Shown here: positions 6,073 to 41,215 of the stretch, in pieces
Layout: every line of letters begins with the position of its first letter
Position numbering within the stretch: the first letter of the stretch is position 1
Assembly: GCA_045632845.1 (NCBI GenBank)
Contig: JAZQXL010000020.1
Span: forward strand, 99,386 to 163,385
Direction of reading: 5' to 3'
Source: Alphaproteobacteria bacterium
GTDB lineage: Bacteria > Pseudomonadota > Alphaproteobacteria > CAAHEQ01 > UBA3637
Length of the DNA: 64,000 bases
Notes under the pieces: generated by a model
Told to the model about the DNA's origin: nothing
The model's input: only the letters and a program-made list of their open reading frames with translations
Database searches by the model: none
Made by a program: the position numbers and the translations under genes

Positions 6073-7953
6073 TTAAATTTTCCACCAAGTTAATACATTC
6101 GCACCCTTTAATGGAACTGTTGTTGGCATTCCTATTGTATTTTGAAACATATATCTATGAGCAGGTGTATACCAATGCGGAATAACAATATGTTCATTTA
6201 ACAATACACGATCAAGCGCATGCACAGCCGTTATCAATTCTTCTTTTGAAGAAGACTGAATAACCAATTCAACCAAAGCATCAATTACTGGATTTTTAAG
6301 ACCACTATAATTCATTGATCCTTGGCTGTCCGCAGCAGAAGATGTCCAAAAATATCTTTGCTCATTCCCTGGAGAAAGTGATTGTCCCCAAACACTGACA
6401 ATCATATCATATTCAAACGAATCAAGCCGATTTTTATATTGCAACAAATCAACTGTTCGAATATGCGCTTTGATACCAAGACGCATCAATTTTCCAACAA
6501 AAGGCAGCGTAATGCGCTCCCATGCCGCTGCTGATGCAGTATCAATCAAAATCTCAAATTCAAATTCTTCCCCTTCTTTTTCCAAAAAGCCTTTTTCATT
6601 CACATTCCACCCTGAGGCTTTTAATAAATCCATCGCTTTATACAACCGTTCACGCACATCTGCTGATTCTTGTTGATATAAAGGCTCAAAAACAGTTTCA
6701 TCTAATTGATTCTTAAAAGGCTCTAATAATTTCAATTCATTTTCATCAGGTAACGTAGGCGCTTTTAAATATGAATTATCAAAAAAGCTGGTTGTTCTTG
6801 AATATAATCCATGAAAAAGATTATAATTCATCCAGTCAAAATCAAATGCCAAAGAAAGTGCTTTTCGAACATTCTTATCTTGAAACAATGGTTTTCTTAA
6901 ATTAAACACATACCCTTGCATACCACTTGGTAAATGATATTCAAAACTTCTTAATTTTATACGTCCATTTAAAACGTTTTTTTCATGCTGAAAATTCGCC
7001 CATTTTTTGGCTTCATTTTCAAGACGAACATCAAACTCTCCTGCTTTAAAAGCTTCTAAAGCAACCGTTGTATCTCGATAATAATCAAAATGGAACTTAT
7101 CAAAATGATAAAAACCTTTATTCACATTTAAATTTTTTGCCCAATATTTTTCATTTTTTTGATACGTAATAGAACGCCCCGCTGTAAAACCACTAATAAC
7201 ATATGGACCACTTGAAACTGGAACTTCTAATGTTGTTTTATCAAAATCTTGTTTACTCCACCAAGCAGATGACAAAACAGGTAACTCACCCAAAATAAAA
7301 GGAAGCTCTCTATTTTCTACATTTTCATAAAAATAAAAAGCAATTGTTTGTTCATCTTTAACCTCAACTTTTTCAACATCTCGATAATAATAACGATATG
7401 TGGGAGCCCCTTTTTCTTTCAACGTTTCAAAAGAAAACAAAACATCATTTGCTGTGATTTTTGAACCATCATTAAATGTTGCATTGGGATTGATATGAAA
7501 AACAACACCTTTTTTGTTTGGTAAAATATAAATGCCATCAGCAATTAATCCATACAATGAAAAAGCCTCATCTGAACTTTGTTTCATCAATGTATCATGA
7601 GTCAAACCAATCCCTGCTGGTGAAACACCATTAATTGAAAAAGGATTAAAAGAATCAAAAGAACCAAAAGAAGCCTGTTTAAGGGTTCCGCCGTTTGGAG
7701 CAGAAATATTCACATAATCAAAAGACACAAATCCCTCTTTATACTTGGGTTCACCATACATTGAAACAGCAGATTTAAAATCATATTCTTTCCCTTGCAC
7801 CATAAAAGAGAAAAAAACAAAACTCAAAGCGACAAATATTTTAACTAAAGACAACAAGTAACAAATCCTTTTAATAAAGATAAACAATTGTTTCGTTTTT
7901 GTTAAAAACAGATAAAACACTAGACTTTTTAAAGTATAATCAGTATAATACAA
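6073..7953 (-). CDS. ABC transporter periplasmic substrate-binding protein, family 5 (oligopeptide/YejA-like). True start probably downstream of the annotated ATG.
   Basis: ~600-aa SBP_bac_5-like sequence (FDYVNISAPNGGTLK..., YQKNEKYWAK..., WTSSAAD...). Hydrophobic signal-like segment KIFVALSFVFFSF about 40 aa into the ORF, so the N-terminus is uncertain. Confidence 0.75.
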   Translation of the reverse strand: MYYTDYTLKSLVFYLFLTKTKQLFIFIKRICYLLSLVKIFVALSFVFFSFMVQGKEYDFKSAVSMYGEPKYKEGFVSFDYVNISAPNGGTLKQASFGSFDSFNPFSINGVSPAGIGLTHDTLMKQSSDEAFSLYGLIADGIYILPNKKGVVFHINPNATFNDGSKITANDVLFSFETLKEKGAPTYRYYYRDVEKVEVKDEQTIAFYFYENVENRELPFILGELPVLSSAWWSKQDFDKTTLEVPVSSGPYVISGFTAGRSITYQKNEKYWAKNLNVNKGFYHFDKFHFDYYRDTTVALEAFKAGEFDVRLENEAKKWANFQHEKNVLNGRIKLRSFEYHLPSGMQGYVFNLRKPLFQDKNVRKALSLAFDFDWMNYNLFHGLYSRTTSFFDNSYLKAPTLPDENELKLLEPFKNQLDETVFEPLYQQESADVRERLYKAMDLLKASGWNVNEKGFLEKEGEEFEFEILIDTASAAAWERITLPFVGKLMRLGIKAHIRTVDLLQYKNRLDSFEYDMIVSVWGQSLSPGNEQRYFWTSSAADSQGSMNYSGLKNPVIDALVELVIQSSSKEELITAVHALDRVLLNEHIVIPHWYTPAHRYMFQNTIGMPTTVPLKGANVLTWWKI

Positions 7954-9040: not shown

Positions 9041-11212
9041 TTATTCTGCTGATGTTTCTTCAGCTTCTTTATGATGTTTTTTCTTCATTGGTTTTTCTTC
9101 CAACTCAACAGGTTCGCCTGTTGTTTGGTCAACACGTTTCATTGAAAGTTTGATTTTGCCACGATTGTCAATACCCATACAGACAACCTTGACTTTATCC
9201 CCTTCTTTGAGAACATCTGTTACTTTTTCAACACGGTGAGGTGCAATTTCTGAAACATGAACAAGGCCATCTCTTGTTCCCATAAAGTTAACAAAAGCAC
9301 CAAAGTCCATTAACTTAACAACTGTACCATCATAAATTTGACCAACTTCAGGTTCTAATACAATACCTTTGATCCAATTTAACGCAGCTTCACCAGCACC
9401 ACCATCAACAGAAGCGATATGGATTAAACCATCATCATCAATGTCAATTTTAGCACCTGTTTTTTCAACAATTTCACGAATGACTTTACCGCCTGTTCCA
9501 ATAACATCACGGATTTTTTCTTTATCAATTTTGTAAGAAATAATACGTGGTGCATTTGGACTAAGTTCTGCACGAGGAGCAGCCAAAGATTCAGCCATTT
9601 TATTCAAAATAAAGATACGACCTTCATGAGCTTGTTCCAATGCAATTGCCATAATTTCTTTTGTAATAGAAGTAATCTTAATGTCCATTTGAAGTGCTGT
9701 AACACCATCTTTTGTACCAGCAACTTTAAAGTCCATATCTCCCAAGTGATCTTCATCACCCAAGATATCAGATAAAACAACAAAAGAATCTTTTTCTTTA
9801 ATCAAACCCATTGCAATACCTGCAACTGGTTTTTTCATTGGAACACCTGCATCCATCAATGCCAATGTTGAACCACAAACGGTTGCCATTGAAGAAGATC
9901 CATTTGATTCCATAATTTCAGATACAACACGGAGTGTGTATGGGAAATCTTCTTTTGATGGTAACATTGGGTGAATTGCGCGCCATGCAAGTTTACCATG
10001 TCCAATTTCTCTACGACCTGGAGAACCCATACGACCAACTTCACCAACTGAGTATGGTGGGAAGTTATAATGTAACATAAAGTGCTCTTTATATTCACCC
10101 TGCAAAGCGTCAATAATTTGTTCATCTTCGCCTGTGCCTAATGTAGCAGTTACAAGAGCTTGCGTTTCTCCACGTGTGAATAATGCAGAACCATGTGTTT
10201 TTGGTAAGACATTAACTTCTGTTTCAATAACACGGATTGTTTTTGTATCACGACCATCAATACGAAGACCTGTGGATAAAACCATATCGCGAACTGTTCT
10301 TGCTTCTAATTCATGGAAAACTTGATCACAAATTGCATCTTCAGCTTCACGATCAGCAAACAAAGCATGTGCTTTTTCTCTGATTGCAGAAACTTGATTT
10401 AATCTTTCAAGTTTATTATGAATGTGATATGCTTCTTTTAATTCATCACCAAGATTTTCTAAAATTTCAGCACGAACTGTTGCATATTCTGCAGGTTCTT
10501 CTTTAACATCCCATGGATCTTTTGCACATTCTTCAGCCAAAGAAATAATCATATCGATAACTGGTTTTAAGCTATCATGACCAAAAGCAACAGCACCAAG
10601 CATTGTTTCTTCAGAAAGTTCTTGAGCTTCTGATTCAACCATCAAAACACCTTCAGATGTACCAGCAACAACCAAGTCTAATTGACTGTTTTTAACCACA
10701 TCTAAATCTGGGTTTAAGATGTACTCACCATCGATATACCCAACACGAGCACCAGCAATTGGGCCTAAAAATGGAATGCCTGACAATGTCAATGCAGCAG
10801 AAGCACCAATCATTGCGATAATATCTGGTTGAGTTTTCAAATCATGACTTAACAATGTAACAGTAACTTGTGTATCATTGTTAAAACCTTTAACAAACAA
10901 TGGACGAATTGGTCTGTCAATTAAACGAGATGTCAAAATTTCTGCCTCTGATGGTTTTCCTTCACGTTTAAAGAACCCACCAGGAATACGCCCAGCAGCA
11001 TAACTTTTTTCAATATAATTAACTGTTAATGGAATAAAATCTTCAAATGTATCTGGTGCTTTTTTGCTTGCACAAACAGCAGCATGCACCATTGTGTCCC
11101 CATAGCGTACAATCACAGCACCATCAGCTTGGCGTGAGATTTTACCTGTTTCGATTGAAAGAGGTTTGCCTCCCCACATCATTTCTTTTTTAAATGTTTT
11201 AAAAATAGTCAT
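9041..11212 (-). CDS. pnp: Polyribonucleotide nucleotidyltransferase (PNPase)
   Basis: [33 protein letters not shown]... Two RNase PH domains plus KH and S1. Start set at the Met matching the PNPase N-terminus. Confidence 0.92.
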
Positions 11213-18180: not shown

Positions 18181-19407
18181 ATGCTATTTTCAAAAAAAAC
18201 ACCTCAAACAGTTGAAGAAATAAAAACCGAAGAAGCAAGCGAACCTGCTTCAAATCCAATGCCTCAGGCACCAGCTTTTTCTGGACCTGCATCAATTCCT
18301 CAAGCACCTGTTCTTACCTTAAAAAAAGAGCAACTTATTGGAAATTCTAATACCTCTTCACCTAAAGAACCAGAAGATAATGTTCAAACAACCAATCCGT
18401 TTCCTCACGAAGAAACACAAGGGGATGGAACAAAAGTTTTTAAAGCACAATCCGTTCAAGATGTTAATTTTTCAGACATTTGGTTAACGCCAGAAAAAGT
18501 TTCATACATCCGTGATAAATCCACTAAATTTGCCTTAATTCCTTTTGAAACAGATGATATGGATGACTTTTTAAGAGCACTTGATCAAAACTTTCAAGGT
18601 GCCTCTAGTTATTCCATTAAATTCAAAGGAGAAGCTTATCGTGTAGAACGCGTTGTTACAACAACTGGGATTCAATATAACTGCCGAAAAATGCCATCAT
18701 CTACACCAAACATATATAATCTTGGATTACCCGAACCTGTTGTTAAATATATGACTTCCCTTGCAACCGAATCTGGGCTACTTCTTTTTGCGGGTCCAAC
18801 AGGTATGGGAAAAACAACATCTGCCTCAGCCTTGATACGCGAATTTTTAGAAACACATGGTGGATTCTTATACACCATTGAAGACCCACCTGAAATGCCT
18901 TTAGATGGCATTTATCATGCCAAAAATGGAGGCTTAGGATTATGTAAACAAAGTCCCGTTGAAAACGAAAGATGGGAAGATGGATTAAAATCCGCCTTAC
19001 GTTCTCGTCCAAGATACATCCTTGTTGGAGAAATCAGAACGCCTGAAGTTGCCTCTCAAGCATTACGCGCAGCAACATCTGGACACCTTGTTGTATCAAC
19101 CATTCATGCAAACAGCGTTGAAGATGCTTTAAACTCTTTGATCAAATATGCTGCTGGTGCAGGGTTAGATGAAAAACTTGTTTGCGACCTTTTGGCTCGT
19201 GGCATTTTGGGTGTTATTCACCAACAATTGGAAGGGACAACAACCTTGCGACCTGTTATTCATACCGCTTTTGCAAACCCAAACCCAATGGTAGCTTGCC
19301 AAATGCGTATGAGCATCCGCGAAGGAAAAATTGCTCTTGCTACATTTATGGAGGCACAAAACACCAGAATGTTCCAAGGCCGACCTTTATTTAGGGAAAT
19401 TAAATAA
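18181..19407 (+). CDS. PilT/VirB11/CpaF-superfamily secretion ATPase with divergent, Pro-rich N-terminal region
   Basis: Walker A LLFAGPTGMGKTTSAS. Asp box YTIEDPPEM. Walker B RYILVGEIRTPE. His box SGHLVVSTIHANSVEDAL (PilT-like). The first ~150 aa are low-complexity (PQAPAFSGPASIPQAP) and unlike the PilT N-domain. RBS aaaaaggggata upstream. Confidence 0.8.
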   Translation: MLFSKKTPQTVEEIKTEEASEPASNPMPQAPAFSGPASIPQAPVLTLKKEQLIGNSNTSSPKEPEDNVQTTNPFPHEETQGDGTKVFKAQSVQDVNFSDIWLTPEKVSYIRDKSTKFALIPFETDDMDDFLRALDQNFQGASSYSIKFKGEAYRVERVVTTTGIQYNCRKMPSSTPNIYNLGLPEPVVKYMTSLATESGLLLFAGPTGMGKTTSASALIREFLETHGGFLYTIEDPPEMPLDGIYHAKNGGLGLCKQSPVENERWEDGLKSALRSRPRYILVGEIRTPEVASQALRAATSGHLVVSTIHANSVEDALNSLIKYAAGAGLDEKLVCDLLARGILGVIHQQLEGTTTLRPVIHTAFANPNPMVACQMRMSIREGKIALATFMEAQNTRMFQGRPLFREIK

Positions 19408-19426: not shown

Positions 19427-19451
19427 AAAAGCCCCGCTCGGGGCTTTTTTT
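19427..19451 (+). terminator. Rho-independent terminator after the ATPase gene
   Basis: aaaagccccgctcggggcttttttttg. Confidence 0.6.
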
Positions 19452-19601
19452 TGTTACAAATAAAATAAAAGAGAGATTAAGATCTCTTTTGTTAATAAAT
19501 TTATTTCTATTTAAAATAAAAAAATCGAAGATTGTTTTTCCCACAGATAAATATCCTGTAACATATGTTTTTTTAACAACCAATCAAAAAGGAAACATAA
19601 A

Positions 19602-20222
19602 ATGATTTACGGATATATCAGAGTTTCAACTGACAAACAAACCACAGAAAACCAAAAATTTGAAATCGAGCAATTTTGTATTCAAAACAAGATTGTTATT
19701 GACAAATGGATAACCGAAACCATTAGCGCAACAAAAGAGTTAAATAAACGAAAACTTGGTACTCTTTTAAGACAAATTAAAAATGACGATATTGTTATTG
19801 CAACAGAATTATCCAGATTAGGTAGAAATCTGCTTCAAGTCATGAGTATTTTACACCACTGTATGAATGTTGGTTGCCAAATTTGGACTATTAAAGACCA
19901 CTATCGACTTGGGAAAACCATAGAATCAAAGGTATTAGCTTTTGCTTTTGGATTAGCCGCAGAAATTGAACGAGATCTTATTTCTCAACGAACTAGCGAA
20001 GCTCTAAAACGATTAAAAACCGAAGGAAAAACTTTGGGGCGTCCCAAAGGAAAAAAGAATCAAAAATGTAAATTGGAAAATAAAAAAAATCAAATTAAAA
20101 ACCTTTTGGAAAAGAAAGTTCCCAGAAACAAAATAGCAAAAACCATAAATGTTGATGTAAAAACATTAAATAAATTTATCGATGATTATAAAAAATATGT
20201 TGTTTTTTCCTTATTTTTATAA
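19602..20222 (+). CDS. Small serine recombinase (resolvase/invertase family)
   Basis: MIYGYIRVSTDKQTTENQ (catalytic Ser in the YxRVSTxxQ motif). LSRLGRN. C-terminal HTH KIAKTINVDVKTLNKFI. 206 aa. Confidence 0.85.
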   Translation: MIYGYIRVSTDKQTTENQKFEIEQFCIQNKIVIDKWITETISATKELNKRKLGTLLRQIKNDDIVIATELSRLGRNLLQVMSILHHCMNVGCQIWTIKDHYRLGKTIESKVLAFAFGLAAEIERDLISQRTSEALKRLKTEGKTLGRPKGKKNQKCKLENKKNQIKNLLEKKVPRNKIAKTINVDVKTLNKFIDDYKKYVVFSLFL

Positions 20223-20225
20223 CAA

Positions 20226-20258
20226 AAAAGCCCCTGACGAGCAGAGGCTTTTTCTTTA
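20226..20258. terminator. Bidirectional terminator between the recombinase gene and tuf
   Basis: aaaaaagcccctgacgagcagaggctttttcttt imperfect hairpin with T-run. Confidence 0.45.
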
Positions 20259-24469: not shown

Positions 24470-25744
24470 ATGCTTGATATCAAATTTATTCGTGAAAACC
24501 CTGATATTGTCAAAAAAACTTTGGCTGAAAAATGCTTAACATTAGATATTGATGAACTTTTATCGATTGATAAAAAAATCATCCAAATCAAACAATTGAT
24601 GGAAGCTGAATTACAAAAAAGAAATGCTCTTAGCAAAGAAATGCCAAAAGCTTCACCTGAAAGAAAAGAAGAAATCAAAGAACTTTCTAAAAAATCAGGG
24701 CAACAAGCAGCCGCATATGCCGAAGAATTAAAACCTTTAGAAGAACAATTCAAATCAATGATGGGCATGACACCAACTATCCCTGCTCCAGATGTTCCAC
24801 GTGGAACAAGTGAAGAAGAAAACGTTGTCGTTCGCCAAGTTGGCGAAAAACCAACATTCGATTTTGAAATGAAAGACCATGTTGAGTTGATGGATTTGAA
24901 CAACTGGGGTGAATTCAAAAAAATCTCTCAAATTTGCGGCAGCCGCACTGTCGGGATTAAAGGTGAACTTCTTCAATTAGAAATGGCTTTATGGCAATTT
25001 ACTGTTAATAAATTGATGGAAAAAGGCTTTACCGTAATGAGCGTCCCTTCCCTCTCATTTGAAAACGCATTCTATCACACAGGCCACTTCCCATTTGATT
25101 ATGATTCTGTTTACTCTATGCCAAAAGACAACCTTTATTTAGCTGGAACAGCTGAAGTTATTTTAAACAGTATTCACGCAGGCGATATTCTTAAAGAAGC
25201 TGATTTGCCAATTATGTACGCAGGATTCTCTCCTTGTTTCAGACGTGAAGCAGGCGCTGCTGGTAAAGACACAAGAGGACTTATCCGTGTTCACCAATTC
25301 AGCAAAGTTGAACAATACATTATTTGTAAAGCTGAAGTTGCCGAATCAGATAAAATGCATCAATTTATTTTGCAAAATGCTGAGGAAGTTATGCAAGAAA
25401 TGGAAATTCCATATCAAATCATTGCGAACTGCACAGGCGATATGGGTGCGGGCAAATACCGTATGAACGACATTGAAGCTTGGTGTCCAGGTCAAAACCA
25501 ATACAGAGAAACGCACAGCTGTTCTTCTTTATTAGACTGGCAAGCACGTCGAACAAACATCCGCTATCGTGAAGATGAAACAGGCAAAGTTAAATATGCT
25601 TATACATTGAACAATACAGGCCTTGCAACACCACGTGTGTTGGTTGCCTTTATTGAAAATCACCAACAAGCTGATGGATCTGTTCGTATTCCAAAAGCTC
25701 TTCAACCTTATATGGGTGGAAAAACAAAAATCGGTGGAAAATAA
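24470..25744 (+). CDS. serS: Serine--tRNA ligase
   Basis: MLDIKFIRENPDIVKKTLAEK, N-terminal coiled coil, class II motifs (FRREAGAAGKDTRGLIRVHQFSKVE, GLATPRVLVAFIENHQ). Confidence 0.95.
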   Translation: MLDIKFIRENPDIVKKTLAEKCLTLDIDELLSIDKKIIQIKQLMEAELQKRNALSKEMPKASPERKEEIKELSKKSGQQAAAYAEELKPLEEQFKSMMGMTPTIPAPDVPRGTSEEENVVVRQVGEKPTFDFEMKDHVELMDLNNWGEFKKISQICGSRTVGIKGELLQLEMALWQFTVNKLMEKGFTVMSVPSLSFENAFYHTGHFPFDYDSVYSMPKDNLYLAGTAEVILNSIHAGDILKEADLPIMYAGFSPCFRREAGAAGKDTRGLIRVHQFSKVEQYIICKAEVAESDKMHQFILQNAEEVMQEMEIPYQIIANCTGDMGAGKYRMNDIEAWCPGQNQYRETHSCSSLLDWQARRTNIRYREDETGKVKYAYTLNNTGLATPRVLVAFIENHQQADGSVRIPKALQPYMGGKTKIGGK

Positions 25745-25769
25745 AAATGAACCACTCTAAAAAAAGAGG

Positions 25770-25798
25770 CTTTAACGCCTCTTTTTTTTATTTAAATT
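25770..25798 (+). terminator. Terminator after serS
   Basis: aaaaaagaggctttaacgcctctttttttt. Confidence 0.6.
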
Positions 25799-26033
25799 CA
25801 CCATCATTAAACAACTCATTTGATTTTTATTTTCAATAAGTTAATCAACTTAAGGGTATGGGAGAAAAAACGAACCTTATTTTTCCTATAGCACAAATCA
25901 AATATGTTTGCAAATAATTTCACAAGAAAACTCAATAAAATTATTGTGTTATTTTGTTTTTCAAAAAACATTAAAATCTCCTCAAAATATGGAAAAAAAA
26001 GGTTCGTTTTTTTTCACACAAAAGGAGATAATT

Positions 26034-26507
26034 ATGAAATATAAAAAAAATGAGTCAGGCAGATCAATGGTTGAAATGTTGGGCGTCTTGGCTATTATCG
26101 GTGTGCTTTCTGTCGGCGGTATTGCAGGATACAGTTTGTCAATGCGTCGTCACAGAGCCAATGGTGTGGTAGATTATATCTCAAAATTTGCTTTAACAGA
26201 ATATGCTAAATGTCAACAAGAAGTGCTAGAAACCGGTATTTCAACATGGTACTGCAGCAATAAGGGGACATCATATTCACCCAACAGCACCCAATTGCCC
26301 GATATTGGAACTTTTCCTTCAGGAATTACTCAAATTACAACAAACGACATTTATACCGCTAGTGATGATGGTGCTGATGATAAAGTTGATATTGATGTAA
26401 AATTTTACGATCAAAAACTCTGTCAAGCAGTTGCGAGCGTTTCAGGATACAGTTGTGGCACTCAGAACAATGAACATATTATTAATTTTGTATTTAAGAT
26501 GGAATAA
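26034..26507 (+). CDS. Type IV pilin-like protein (prepilin with class III signal peptide), orphan
   Basis: MKYKKNESG|RSMVEMLGVLAIIGVLSVGGIAGYSL: short basic leader ending in Gly, Glu at +5, ~20-residue hydrophobic helix (parallels GFTLIEMLIVLAII). Two C-terminal Cys pairs (C..C). RBS aaaggaga 6 bp upstream of the ATG. Confidence 0.7.
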   Translation: MKYKKNESGRSMVEMLGVLAIIGVLSVGGIAGYSLSMRRHRANGVVDYISKFALTEYAKCQQEVLETGISTWYCSNKGTSYSPNSTQLPDIGTFPSGITQITTNDIYTASDDGADDKVDIDVKFYDQKLCQAVASVSGYSCGTQNNEHIINFVFKME

Positions 26508-26526
26508 GTTCAATCAAAATGAATTT

Positions 26527-26565
26527 AAATCCCAAAAAGGAGTCTCAAAAAAAGAGACTCCTTTT
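26527..26565. terminator. Bidirectional terminator between the pilin-like gene and rpoH
   Basis: aaaaaggagtctcaaaaaaagagactcctttttt. Confidence 0.6.
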
Positions 26566-26582
26566 TTCTCAACAAAAAGAAT

Positions 26583-27482
26583 CTAAATTGTTAAAAGCGA
26601 AGCTTCAGCTTTTACATATTTTGAAATTTTTTCAAAAGCTTTATTTTCAATCTGACGAATCCGTTCACGGCTAATTTTAAACTGAACACCTAAATCTTCA
26701 AGTGTGACAGGATCATCTGTTAAAAATCGTTTTGAGATAATTGTTTTTTCACGATCTGAAAGCGTTTCAATTGCTTGTAAAAGGAGTCGTTTTTTAACAG
26801 CCATATCTTCTCTATTCCCCAAATCTTCTTCAATTGAAATAGCAGAATCAGCCAACATGTCTTGATGATTGGTTGCCGTGTCCGAAGACAATGTTGCATT
26901 CAAAGAAGAATCACCACTCAAACGTTGTTCCATTTCAATAACATCTTTTTTAGCAACCCCAAGCATTTTTGAAATTTGCTCAGCTGTTTCATCATTCAAA
27001 CTCGTTTCATCATACAAACCCAAACGAGATTTGATTTTATGAAGATTATAAAAAAGTCTTTTTTGTGTAGCCACAGTCCCAATCTTAACCAACGACCAAG
27101 ATTTTAAAATAAACTCTGAAATTGAAGCTTTTATCCACCAAATAGCATATGTTGCTAAACGGAATCCTTTATCAGGATCAAACCGTTTAATCGCTTGCAT
27201 TAAACCAATGTTAGCTTCAGAAATCAAATCAGCTAAAGACAAACCATAATGTCTAAATGACAATGCAACTTTAGCCGCCAATCTTAAATGTGATGTTGTT
27301 AATTGATGTGCTGCAGCAATATCATTGTCATCATGAAATCTTTTAGCCAACATATACTCTTGATCAGCGTCCAACATTGGAAACTTGTTCACTTCAGCTA
27401 AATAGAGAGACAGAGAATTTCTTGTATATAAAAGTGATAATACATTTGTATTTGACTGCGTCATTATCTTATATCCTTTCAA
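26583..27482 (-). CDS. rpoH: RNA polymerase sigma-32 factor (heat-shock sigma)
   Basis: Sigma-70 regions 2 and 4 (LADLISEANIGLMQAIKRFDPDKGFRLATYAIWWIKASI, RpoH box-like QRKLFFNL; TLEDLGVQFKISRERIRQIE). Confidence 0.88.
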   Translation of the reverse strand: MKGYKIMTQSNTNVLSLLYTRNSLSLYLAEVNKFPMLDADQEYMLAKRFHDDNDIAAAHQLTTSHLRLAAKVALSFRHYGLSLADLISEANIGLMQAIKRFDPDKGFRLATYAIWWIKASISEFILKSWSLVKIGTVATQKRLFYNLHKIKSRLGLYDETSLNDETAEQISKMLGVAKKDVIEMEQRLSGDSSLNATLSSDTATNHQDMLADSAISIEEDLGNREDMAVKKRLLLQAIETLSDREKTIISKRFLTDDPVTLEDLGVQFKISRERIRQIENKAFEKISKYVKAEASLLTI

Positions 27483-38770: not shown

Positions 38771-41215
38771 TTATGCTTGTTCTAGATATGCTTGAACCAA
38801 TGCATCTGTATCTTGAACCTGTTTAGCCAATCTTTCAGCCAAAATAACACTTTTGTTACCAGAAGAGTAAATTTTTAACAAAGGCCCTAAACCACTTAAA
38901 TCAACATCTAAAATAACAGATTCGTGAATTGCAGGACGAGAAACCAAAATAGCATACTTTCTATCTGCAAACTCTTTTCCCAAAATAAAGTTCATTTCTC
39001 TTGGCGTTAAATTCCATGTTGCATAGTCTGATGGATTTGCTTGAGGGTTTCTAAAGAAAATAACTGTTTGACATTGACCACGAATAACATCACCCAAACC
39101 ATTATCATCCAAAAACCTTGGTTGTTGGAAAGCACACAAATAAGCTTGTCGTTTTTTACGACCTTCACGAAGACCAACAATAAAACTATCTTTAAACATT
39201 GGATGCTCTAACATTGGAGCAGTTTCGTCAATCATAATCAAACTTGGTGTACCCATAACAGTAGATAACGTTTGAATACGATACATTACATAACTAATAA
39301 CAGCAGGCGCTAAAACACTATCTTGGAAAATAGTTGTAAAGTCAAAAGCCATATATCTGCTAGACAAATCCAAATTATCCGTTAACGAGTTGAAAACACG
39401 ACCATATTGATCATCATTAACCCATCTAAACAATTCTCTTCTCATATAACCATTTGGTGCAAAACAACTTTTATATAAGTTTTTCAACAACCGTTCATCT
39501 GGTCTTAAATATTCAAATGCTGTTGTTACTGCACGCGCAATTTCTTGTTCTGAAATAGCATCTGTACCCCCTGTAATATCACGCATCCATGTTCTTAAAA
39601 AGGCACGTGTATCAGAGGAATCAGGAACAGCAAAAGGATTTAAAGATACAGATTCTTCCCCCCCATCAAATCGAACGTATGGAGCACCTTGCATTAATGC
39701 AAAAACCTTAGCACCATTATTTCTATCAAAGAAATAAGTTCTCAAATCTGGAATACGCATAGATTGCCCTGCAAGGAAGGAGAAAAGCGTTGTTTTACCT
39801 TGTCCAGTTGGACCAATTAATGCGGTATGAGCTACAGCATATTGTTCTTCAGATACGTGAAATTGGAAAGCATATGCCGTTCCTGTAATCGTTCTAAAAT
39901 AAGATAAAGGCATTGGACCCCAATCTGATTTTCTTCGACCTTCAGCTGTTTTATCAATACATACAGCACAAGCAACAACACGTGACAAATATAAGAATGT
40001 TCTTGGATAAATTTCATATGTTGGGAATTGTGCAAAAAATGTTGCTTGAGCAGACCACCCTTCACGAACAGGTGTCACATTGTGCAAACGACAGATTTTT
40101 TCAATCTCTTCTTGCCCGAATTTCAACTCTTCTTTGCTTTCGCCAAAAATAAAGACAGACATTGCATATTCATTTAATGTTTGACCATCAGCATCTGATT
40201 GATCCATCCATTCTAAAGCGGTATTATACTGGGCTTGAACGTTTGTTGAAAACGTTGTTAACCAAGCCATTCTTCGTTGTTGCATCAAGAGCATATTTGC
40301 TTTAATCATAGGGATAGCTTTGATATTGTGAACCAAGGTAACTTCACAATCAATACTGATAATATCAGCAATCATTTGTTCATCCATAAAATCCCCTGGT
40401 TTGCGAATACCAATGCATATACCATATTTAATAATATCGCCTGAAAAGAATTTAATAATCCCTTCATCTTTTGTAAAATGGATATAATCTGCTGTTAATA
40501 AAGCATTTAAAGTATCTCCTTCCTCACCACCAATTCTTGGTTGAGGAACAGATAATGGACTTGCTAATTGTGAAAAAAGCCAAAAAGGACTTTTATCATT
40601 ATGCTTATGAGGTGTTTTTTCTGAAATCAAAACAGGCTCATACACATCCAAAATAGAGGTTAAAGCCAATGTTGCTTGTTGCAAATCATCTAGAGCATTT
40701 TTTCGATCATTAATAGAAATAACAATATAATGTTTATTTCTAAAAACACGTTGCATATTCTCCATCCATTTTGTTGATACTTTTTTGAGAAGCTTGCTAT
40801 CCCTGTGTTCCCCCATATCGTTTAAAGAAATACGCTCACGGATTGTAATTACTCTTGAAACAACCTCTAAAGAAGCCATAGAGTCAATCCATTGTTTTCT
40901 TGCTTGAGCCAAAGCCAACCTTTCTGGCCCTGTTAAAAGAGTTGTATCTGCTCCACGTACCTCAAAAACACGTGCAAGAGAACCATTTTTTAAATGGATC
41001 GTTGCACCATCTGCATCCAACCTACTAAAAGGCAAGAAATCAGAAACCCTTGTTTCTCTAGGTTTTGGTAAAATAATGTCCCCTAATTTTGTCACAAAAA
41101 CAGACATAATAAACATTGCTGCACAAACACCAATTAGTGCAACCAATGTTGAAAAAGAGGATGCCCCCTGTGCTAACAGGTCAAAAATATTCATGTCAAA
41201 ATGGATATCATTCAT
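38771..41215 (-). CDS. virB4: Type IV secretion system ATPase VirB4/TrbE/CagE family (orphan)
   Basis: 814 aa. N-terminal TM helix. Walker A TALIGPTGQGKTTLFSF. Walker B-like SLIMIDETAPML. C-terminal motifs GLREGRKKRQAYLCAFQQP (VirB4 RK/Q motifs). Confidence 0.85.
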   Translation of the reverse strand: MNDIHFDMNIFDLLAQGASSFSTLVALIGVCAAMFIMSVFVTKLGDIILPKPRETRVSDFLPFSRLDADGATIHLKNGSLARVFEVRGADTTLLTGPERLALAQARKQWIDSMASLEVVSRVITIRERISLNDMGEHRDSKLLKKVSTKWMENMQRVFRNKHYIVISINDRKNALDDLQQATLALTSILDVYEPVLISEKTPHKHNDKSPFWLFSQLASPLSVPQPRIGGEEGDTLNALLTADYIHFTKDEGIIKFFSGDIIKYGICIGIRKPGDFMDEQMIADIISIDCEVTLVHNIKAIPMIKANMLLMQQRRMAWLTTFSTNVQAQYNTALEWMDQSDADGQTLNEYAMSVFIFGESKEELKFGQEEIEKICRLHNVTPVREGWSAQATFFAQFPTYEIYPRTFLYLSRVVACAVCIDKTAEGRRKSDWGPMPLSYFRTITGTAYAFQFHVSEEQYAVAHTALIGPTGQGKTTLFSFLAGQSMRIPDLRTYFFDRNNGAKVFALMQGAPYVRFDGGEESVSLNPFAVPDSSDTRAFLRTWMRDITGGTDAISEQEIARAVTTAFEYLRPDERLLKNLYKSCFAPNGYMRRELFRWVNDDQYGRVFNSLTDNLDLSSRYMAFDFTTIFQDSVLAPAVISYVMYRIQTLSTVMGTPSLIMIDETAPMLEHPMFKDSFIVGLREGRKKRQAYLCAFQQPRFLDDNGLGDVIRGQCQTVIFFRNPQANPSDYATWNLTPREMNFILGKEFADRKYAILVSRPAIHESVILDVDLSGLGPLLKIYSSGNKSVILAERLAKQVQDTDALVQAYLEQA

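Follow-up and report, generated by a model that had tools for sequence, protein, structure and literature searches.

Site-specific inversion decides which pilus protein is produced, or if one is produced at all, in several systems, namely tfpQ/tfpI of Moraxella with the recombinase Piv, the R64 shufflon with Rci and PilV, and fimS of E. coli with FimB/FimE. In Neisseria pilE/pilS, hypervariable head cassettes are joined to a constant N-terminal coding part, and mosaic alleles are found between strains. Phase variation by invertons of the Mpi type is regarded as a hallmark of the surface biology of gut Bacteroidales. The Mpi recombinase of B. fragilis inverts 13 distant regions, seven of which are capsule promoters (PMC4747536), and the consensus of its inverted repeats is ARACGTTCGTN (PMC8375218).

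The locus described here belongs to an alphaproteobacterium, and the whole stretch of DNA that was analysed (64 kb, G+C 33.8%) is called the window below. We consider it probable that the gene at 26034-26507 codes for a type IVb-like prepilin, that it is phase-varied by Mpi-family inversion, and that it constitutes one cassette of a variable pilus repertoire. The features which bear on this are, by position:

18181-19407, + strand: PilT-like secretion ATPase of the T2SSE superfamily, 408 aa (PF00437, 111.6 bits)
19602-20222, + strand: Mpi-family master DNA invertase, a small serine recombinase of 206 aa (NF009949)
25759-25788, + strand: intrinsic terminator of serS, a 12-pair stem followed by a T run (terminator scan)
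25859-25886, no strand: left inverted repeat (IRL), Mpi-type site of 28 nt, central AA at 25873-25874
25887-25990, no strand: invertible spacer of 104 nt, reverse-complemented in the contigs L081, L087 and L089
25991-26018, no strand: right inverted repeat (IRR), Mpi-type site with the core AAAGGTTCGTT, central TT at 26003-26004
26034-26507, + strand: prepilin-like gene, 157 aa, with leader M1-G9, predicted cleavage at G9|R10, alpha1 helix and a variable head with two Cys pairs
26534-26566, no strand: bidirectional terminator hairpin, common to the pilin gene and the convergent rpoH

The pilin-like protein and its family

The gene lies between serS (24470-25744) and the convergent rpoH (26583-27482), where the first-pass annotation had placed it, and the RBS which that annotation had ascribed to it is present as AAGGAGA at 26022-28, 5 nt before the ATG. 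The bidirectional terminators that it had also described are found on the downstream side, where the hairpin at 26534-26566 is shared with rpoH (-22.4 kcal/mol by RNA folding, with z -6.5 for the + and z -3.2 for the - strand, and with A and T runs on its flanks); the upstream one at 25759-25788 is serS's own and, as predicted from its stem and T run, shields the pilin gene from upstream read-through. Rfam gave no match close to the gathering score in 25500-26800, and exact-protein look-ups returned no record for the pilin-like protein of the window, its homologue P0014, RpoH, Map or the invertase. A start-codon misannotation was noticed as well, in that the NCBI protein starts where the invertible spacer meets the right repeat.

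The protein begins with MKYKKNESG|RSMVEMLGVLAIIGVLSV, and this N-terminus, also written MKYKKNESG|RSMVEMLGVLAIIGVLSVGGIAGY, consists of a short basic leader with Gly at -1 and a subsequent hydrophobic segment of about 20 residues. Gly at -1, Arg at +1 and Glu at +5 are all in place and the pattern is conserved in homologues, which bears out the class III-type N-terminus that had been proposed for the gene. Dedicated HMMs for such N-termini, suggested earlier as a check, did not recognise it, the scores of PF07963 (16.2 bits, cutoff 21.2) and TIGR02532 (11.3 bits, cutoff 16.3) both being sub-threshold, and a Pfam scan of the product gave no match to the globular domains PF08805 or PF05307. The two Cys pairs pointed out before are real: C60, C74, C130 and C141 are present and invariant or nearly so in an alignment of 30 sequences.

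The AlphaFold2 model, made with an alignment as input, is of modest confidence (pLDDT 81.7, pTM 0.70) and contains a helix at residues 10-67, four strands and one short helix. The long alpha1 helix and the four-stranded sheet that would be expected of a pilin are thus modelled, but Foldseek of the model against the PDB gave no significant match. The best structural matches are CofA, TcpA and PilS. When the head domain was compared by hhalign with operon pilins of the PilS/bundlin type the probability was 12%, i.e. there is no profile homology, and a head homologous to PilS or bundlin, which was also considered, is unsupported at that value. The pilin-like assignment of the first-pass annotation has in its favour the N-terminal pattern, the helix and sheet of the model and the presence of the same N-terminus on an operon pilin (see below), and against it the dedicated HMMs; we regard it as supported as far as architecture and family context go. 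Judged from the model, the protein is pilin-like in architecture and its head is a new variation.

A homologue search against 5.8 billion proteins gave at least 7,900 homologues at E<=0.01, which rules out a chance ORF; the best are 48-62% identical, nearly all have a length near 150 aa, and Pfam domains are absent from all of them. One homologue carries the JGI name 'pseudopilin PulG'. An exhaustive search of 50%-identity representatives gave 4,746 clusters at E<=1e-3, a number that falls to 511 at the stricter E<=1e-10. The genome scan found at least 583 loci, nearly all in MAGs of uncultured Alphaproteobacteria, and the host MAGs of the loci listed come from human, ruminant and other animal guts, e.g. 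CAG:495, UBA3650, RGIG and SIG. No relatives of the family were found among the viral contigs of IMG/VR, and a phage origin of the gene, which had been contemplated, is therefore rejected. In the literature on RF32 and on alphaproteobacterial pilins or invertons we found no account of this system.

What varies in the family is the head. Residues 8-43 (SGRSMVEMLGVLAIIGVLSVGGIAGYSLSMRRHRAN) are almost invariant in the 30-sequence alignment and the region between the conserved Cys (60, 74, 130, 141) is hypervariable, and the mean pairwise identity within the family drops from 92% in residues 1-47 to 38% in the rest of the protein. The N-terminal motif, with the signature GRSMVEMLGVLAIIG, is kept in 261/268 homologues, in which the length of the leader ranges from 5 to 59 residues and Glu is found at +5 without exception (261/261). 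Arg at +1 had been remarked upon as a deviation of this gene that might make processing or methylation atypical; it is indeed at +1, but it is not peculiar to the gene, since 259/261 of the motif-bearing members share it, and it is therefore a hallmark of the family. The Phe/Met or other hydrophobic +1 residue, which is N-methylated in type IV pilins, is correspondingly absent, and Arg is not known in this position from characterised pilins.

In 80 loci that were fetched there are 122 ORFs with the family N-terminus, several per locus and of 72 to 994 aa, and the long members consist of a pilin-like domain followed by Cys-rich repeats. The MAG RGIG4773 has at least 14 family copies on four contigs, plus one PilB/PilC pair, which makes one machine and many dispersed pilin-like genes in a single MAG. 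In the window the family N-terminus occurs only once and there are no assembly genes near it, and to that extent the earlier description of the gene as an orphan is correct, but the gene is one member of a large dispersed pilin-like family and is an orphan only locally.

The invertible segment and the Mpi-family invertase

The first-pass annotation had mentioned neither the repeat pair with its spacer nor the invertase gene. The arms of IRL and IRR, 28 nt each, are 89% complementary, and the 20-mer core of the repeat has two occurrences in the window, which are IRL and IRR themselves, against 0.11 expected. Each arm has an internal dyad symmetry about its central AA or TT (half-site match 10/12 in IRR and 9/12 in IRL), and this would be the usual layout of a crossover site for serine invertases. 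The core of IRR agrees with the B. fragilis Mpi consensus ARACGTTCGTN at 10/11 positions, and the repeat core at another family locus, L001 (AAACGTTCGTT), at 11/11.

IRR ends 15 nt ahead of the ATG, and as serS is terminated upstream, the promoter of the gene must lie in or upstream of the spacer. Probably it is carried by the spacer, where the promoter-like sequence TTCACA-17-TATTGT (25919-25947, + strand) faces the gene, with a match of 9/12 to the consensus that is no better than chance. A second promoter-like candidate points the opposite way, and sites that face the gene are present in spacers at other loci too.

The orientation of the segment can be compared with that of a syntenic locus. 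ENA contigs L081-L083 have a homologue, P0027, beside the same rpoH, map, radC and holA, and the proteins flanking it are 94-99% identical to those of the window, while the pilin-like P0027 is only 52% identical. The 5'UTR and the first 47 codons are collinear between this locus and the window (93% DNA identity), but the spacer aligns only as its reverse complement, with both flanks keeping their orientation. On the serS side, contigs from the same samples (L087, L089 and L090) contain the left flank of the window and IRL, and in L087 and L089 IRL is followed by the spacer in the orientation opposite to that of the window. There are thus inverted-spacer contigs that span a junction on the serS side (L087, L089) as well as on the gene side (L081). 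Contig L081 opens on a perfect palindrome, 142 nt long, of the contig's own right junction, while both L082 and L083 start exactly at IRR, which fits mixed orientations within the samples; such loci break short-read assemblies. An exact 30-mer from the spacer had 0 matches in JGI metagenomes. The comparison of the window with three independent assemblies (L081, L087 and L089) shows that the 104-bp segment exists in both orientations across natural populations, and the gene is probably phase-variable via this upstream inversion.

A candidate enzyme for the switch, by family membership and by the similarity of the sites, is the protein encoded at 19602-20222, 6 kb upstream of the switch and between the PilT-like ATPase and tuf. 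It scores 301 bits (cutoff 272) on the NCBIfam equivalog NF009949, 'master DNA invertase Mpi family serine-type recombinase', and has a Pfam Resolvase domain; its best relative in the PDB is Gin invertase (4m6f, E 2.9e-12), and homologues 65-67% identical to it in Alphaproteobacteria MAGs are named Mpi family by NCBI. The gene order rimP, ATPase, invertase, tuf, serS is kept in L091, where the invertase is 90% identical. Mpi-family homologues also adjoin family genes in L025 (293.5 bits) and L080 (257.9 bits), with no clear inverted repeat between the invertase gene and the neighbouring family gene in either locus. A possible third site of the Mpi type, located at 19518-19541 before the invertase gene of the window, was discarded, since 4 of its 24 positions mismatch and it does not reach significance.

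Switch elements are not confined to this gene. Long inverted repeats, with arms of 18 nt or more, no more than 2 mismatches and a spacer of 40-350 nt, were found upstream of 18/112 family genes against 4/500 control genes, and repeat pairs of the Mpi type, defined by the core AACGWWCS...SGWWCGTT and an arm complementarity of at least 12/16, upstream of 14/113 family genes against 0/579 controls. The 1.2 Mb of loci contain 15 such Mpi-type pairs, all but one of them (14/15) just upstream of a family gene, and a recognisable inverton is present on only about 12% of the family genes. A homologous spacer of 138 nt is forward in L002, L005, L009, L015 (1235) and L016 and reversed in L012, L015 (7405) and L002 (57), and in L001 a single element is situated between two divergent family genes. 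The exact repeat sequence of the window is absent upstream of family genes in other species, and it is the shared core alone that is conserved.

The gene itself varies between strains. The product and its syntenic allele P0027 are 100% identical in residues 1-47 and 29% identical in the rest. In L088 (SerS identical) rpoH comes directly after serS, with about 100 nt between them and both switch and gene absent, and in L091 a different Mpi-type site follows serS. Since P0027 is a mosaic, L088 is empty and L091 differs, we see the gap between serS and rpoH as a hot spot that holds varying inverton-pilin cassettes, or none. Between strains, the variable two-thirds of the protein is swapped, and the cassette may be lacking altogether.

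Assembly machinery and rival explanations

Pfam scans of 49 more ORFs in the window, all with 100 aa or more, revealed housekeeping genes only and no Peptidase_A24, T2SSF or Secretin domain, in agreement with the earlier statement that no prepilin peptidase, PilB/PilC or secretin is encoded in the 64 kb. The sole T2SSE ATPase in the window is the one at 18181-19407, whose best NCBIfam match, pilT_fam, is far below the cutoff (119.9 bits against 319). Its placement between rimP and the invertase gene is kept in L091, and by BLASTP it is 51% identical to the ATPases that come right after the operon pilin in L067 and L079 (342 and 335 bits). The first-pass annotation had named it as the only potential partner of the gene, and this is made plausible by the position of these orthologues immediately after the operon pilin and, in L067, as the last gene of the operon. 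It probably serves a type IVb pilus system, for retraction or in an accessory role.

When the ORFs of the fetched loci were searched by phmmer with E. coli Hof and Gsp seeds, PilB-like and PilC-like genes turned up at most 4 kb away from a family member in L043, L063, L067, L079 and L058. The operon in L067 (CAG:495) starts with TcpQ-like, Secretin, PAP_PilO, PilP-like, T2SSE ATPase and T2SSF platform genes, as identified by Pfam and NCBIfam, and ends with an unknown ORF of 229 aa, a pilin of 223 aa and the PilT-like ATPase, which is the gene order of type IVb systems of the R64 thin-pilus class. Its pilin (9974-10645) has PilS (PF08805) and Bundlin (PF05307) domains, with 59.9 and 50.9 bits, and bears the family N-terminus (NEQSGRSMVEMLGVLAIIGVLS). 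The type IVb operon is thus present in related MAGs and absent from the window. No prepilin peptidase was found by phmmer seeded with the E. coli sequences GspO, HofB, HofC and Gsp in all ORFs of the fetched loci, by a regex of the GGGD[VK] type in about 1.2 Mb of the loci examined, by a transmembrane-count screen with Pfam in the same loci, or by Pfam on the flanks of the type IVb operons. Cleavage of the leader by an A24-family peptidase is accordingly a prediction only, with no A24 gene in the window or in the 1.2 Mb.

In the explanation that we prefer, a prepilin peptidase would cut off the 9-residue leader after Gly9, and the hydrophobic alpha1 together with Glu at +5 would let a type IVb machine extract the protein from the inner membrane, to be built into the pilus fibre or displayed on it. 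The machine would be similar to that of the R64 thin pilus, with a secretin, a TcpQ-like protein, PilO- and PilP-like proteins, a PilB-like ATPase and a PilC-like platform, and its genes would lie in another part of the genome; the ATPase at 18181-19407, which is PilT-like, would belong to the same system. The invertase at 19602-20222 would flip the spacer, with crossover at the central AA/TT of the 28-nt repeats, and expression would become phase-variable. The gene would be a single cassette from a large and variable set of genes for pilus subunits or adhesins, and such a set would help the cell to vary its surface in the face of host immunity, phages or changing substrates. The cleavage of the leader, the incorporation into a fibre, the flipping enzyme, the orientation that is ON and the biological benefit are the steps that we infer.

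One could take this further and assume that a single master invertase of the Mpi type flips many invertons, each before a different member of a repertoire of dozens of pilin and pilin-adhesin genes, that all the products have the one invariant Arg(+1) class III N-terminus and feed a single type IVb machine, that the pili become combinatorial, and that strains reshuffle the repertoire through replacement of cassettes behind the constant N-terminal coding region. We offer this as a tentative extension, which is well conceivable although we would not go so far as to call it probable. If it were true, many invertons would be flipped independently and a clonal population would therefore display combinatorially different pili, and uncultured gut Alphaproteobacteria would run a pilus counterpart of the capsule switching in Bacteroides.

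Three other explanations have to be weighed against the phase-varied pilin. The N-terminus could be a class III-type tag for export or anchoring of unrelated passengers, which would then be pseudopilin-like, tip-located or tethered adhesins and not fibre subunits, comparable to archaeal bindosome proteins or to the PVC expansions of prepilin-tagged proteins. That the same N-terminal module is found on proteins of 72-994 aa with unrelated C-termini, long Cys-rich repeats among them, speaks for such a tag, and so does a 150-aa class whose head is not homologous to the PilS/bundlin head of the operon pilin, as does the operon's having a pilin of its own already; the JGI label 'pseudopilin PulG' on one homologue can be counted on the same side. 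However, the 150-aa class is compact, and with its modelled alpha1 and sheet and its two disulfide-type Cys pairs it has the size and shape of a polymerising subunit, and the thousands of variants with hypervariable heads suit an exposed fibre surface. We find an export tag unlikely on balance.

Dispersed minor-pilin genes are common in bacteria, and the gene could simply be an ordinary, constitutive minor pilin outside the operon, with the repeat and its inversion as a neutral polymorphism or an artefact of assembly. The contigs that show the orientation are indeed short-read metagenome assemblies which break off at the repeat or close to it, and the promoter match is at chance level, but the inverted spacer is found in contigs that span a junction (L087/L089 on the serS side, L081 on the gene side), the repeat has the Mpi core with an Mpi-family invertase 6 kb away, the element is enriched before family genes (14/113 against 0/579) and is seen there in both orientations, and the gap between IRR and the ATG is too small for a fixed promoter. 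We therefore hold a constitutive minor pilin to be very improbable. It is hardly credible, finally, that the protein is no pilin at all, but is inserted by Sec and N-anchored as a periplasmic or outer-surface protein with a convergent resemblance to class III; the sub-threshold HMMs, the atypical Arg at +1, the empty peptidase search of the window and the examined loci and the lack of a significant Foldseek match would agree with it.

If the gene is a phase-varied prepilin, Mpi-type switching in gut alphaproteobacteria would mean that it has spread across phyla in the gut, or that it arose there more than once. A family without a Pfam domain, which comprises thousands of metagenome proteins and forms at least 4,700 clusters when grouped at 50% identity, would gain a function that can be tested, and the invariant Arg at +1 would make these proteins unusual substrates of prepilin peptidase that could help to define the tolerance of the peptidase and of the assembly.

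Comparison with known pilus and inversion systems

With the type IVb pilins (R64 thin pilus, BFP, TCP and CFA-III) the protein has in common Gly at -1, Glu at +5, a hydrophobic alpha1 and a residue other than Phe at +1, and the order secretin, PilO, PilP, ATPase, platform and pilin of R64 pilN-O-P-Q-R-S is also that of related genomes. It differs from typical type IVb pilins in that the leader is only 9 residues long, the mature protein of about 148 aa is smaller and the +1 residue is Arg, and from PilS and bundlin in that the head is without recognisable homology. The family, moreover, has dozens of dispersed copies per genome where type IVb systems have one or two, and there is no peptidase gene in or near the operons of the related genomes.

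The likeness to Mpi of B. fragilis lies in the same NCBIfam equivalog, a core like ARACGTTCGTN and short invertible segments directly before genes for surface structures, and also in that there are many distant loci per genome and a recombinase gene that is not adjacent to its sites. Unlike in Bacteroides, the host is an alphaproteobacterium and the targets are pilin-like genes instead of polysaccharide operons, and the activity and target range of the enzyme are putative here. The spacers, of 104-146 nt, are shorter than the 183-186 bp reported for B. intestinalis.

Compared with the other pilus switches, it is a non-coding spacer that inverts here, whereas Moraxella and the R64 shufflon invert coding segments and in this way swap C-termini, and the recombinase is an Mpi-type serine recombinase, whereas Moraxella, R64 and fimS use Piv (of the DEDD type) or tyrosine recombinases. 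The pattern of variation is most like that of Neisseria pilE/pilS, with residues 1-47 identical between strains and the remainder 29% identical, but in contrast to the promoterless silent cassettes of Neisseria the copies here are complete genes with their own start codon and RBS, and some of them have a switch of their own.

Start of the pilin gene and a small ORF from the invertible spacer

The NCBI protein P0001 for the pilin gene is 172 aa long, and its start ATG is placed at the junction of the invertible spacer and its right repeat, IRR (window 25989-26033). The homologues of the gene all begin at MK(F/Y)KK, which corresponds to window position 26034. The N-terminal extension annotated in P0001 is probably wrong, and it would be altered by inversion of the spacer. 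Inside the spacer there is also a strong RBS with an ATG (GAGGAGATTTTAATG), and a small ORF starts from it in either orientation, the opposite one being found at the related locus L081, where the spacer is reversed:

Window 25816-25971, minus strand: ORF of 51 aa in the window orientation, directed at serS
L081 159-284, plus strand: ORF of 41 codons in the opposite orientation

The ORF in L081 crosses IRR and has its TAA stop 2 nt 5' of the pilin ATG. This ORF could be a leader for translational coupling, or a remnant of the start of a second pilin gene.

A possible insertion of the invertase gene, and cassette turnover in the serS-rpoH gap

The invertase gene is enclosed by an imperfect 31-nt inverted repeat (window 19440-19470 and 20204-20234, 77% complementary), which coincides partly with two terminator hairpins, and the gene may be an inserted module. 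A weak Mpi-like site, the third in the window (AAAAAAATCGAAGATTGTTTTTCC, 19518-19541), sits 60 nt 5' of the gene; with 4 mismatches in 24 it is by itself without significance. The window also holds a lone VirB4/TrbE-like ATPase (38771-41215, minus strand; TIGR00929, 343 bits, under the cutoff of 643), and no further type IV secretion genes were detected in the window by Pfam.

The gap between serS and rpoH differs between strains. It is empty in L088 (4071-4170, about 100 nt) and carries a different Mpi-type site (GTGTGTAAAATAAACGTTCGATTAATTTACACA) in L091 (14147-14309). The gap is a hot spot, in which cassettes are gained, lost or replaced.

Family genes at other loci and beside a pilus operon

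At locus L001 (5983-6405), one Mpi-type inverton, with arms at 6124-6265 and a spacer of 118 nt, is common to two divergent family genes, and a single invertible promoter could here lead to the expression of either one gene or the other. At L084 (10001-11643), from a metagenome in which the window's species also occurs, three family genes (149, 155 and 152 aa) stand in tandem, flanked by infC and rplS, and no window-type repeat was found there at up to 4 mismatches. Four other loci hold long members:

L040 12835: 994 aa
L053 3061: 893 aa
L025 2312: 613 aa, inverton upstream
L002 878: 520 aa, inverton upstream

All four have a pilin-like N-domain followed by Cys-rich repeats over hundreds of residues, and are candidate tip adhesins.

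In the type IVb pilus operons of L079 and L067, an ORF separates the platform gene from the gene of the operon pilin:

L079 9277-9873
L067 9162-9851

Its product is no peptidase. It has neither a class III motif nor a Pfam match. It does have one N-terminal TM helix and a sequence that resembles a pilin head, and is perhaps a pilin-like protein with an accessory or minor role.
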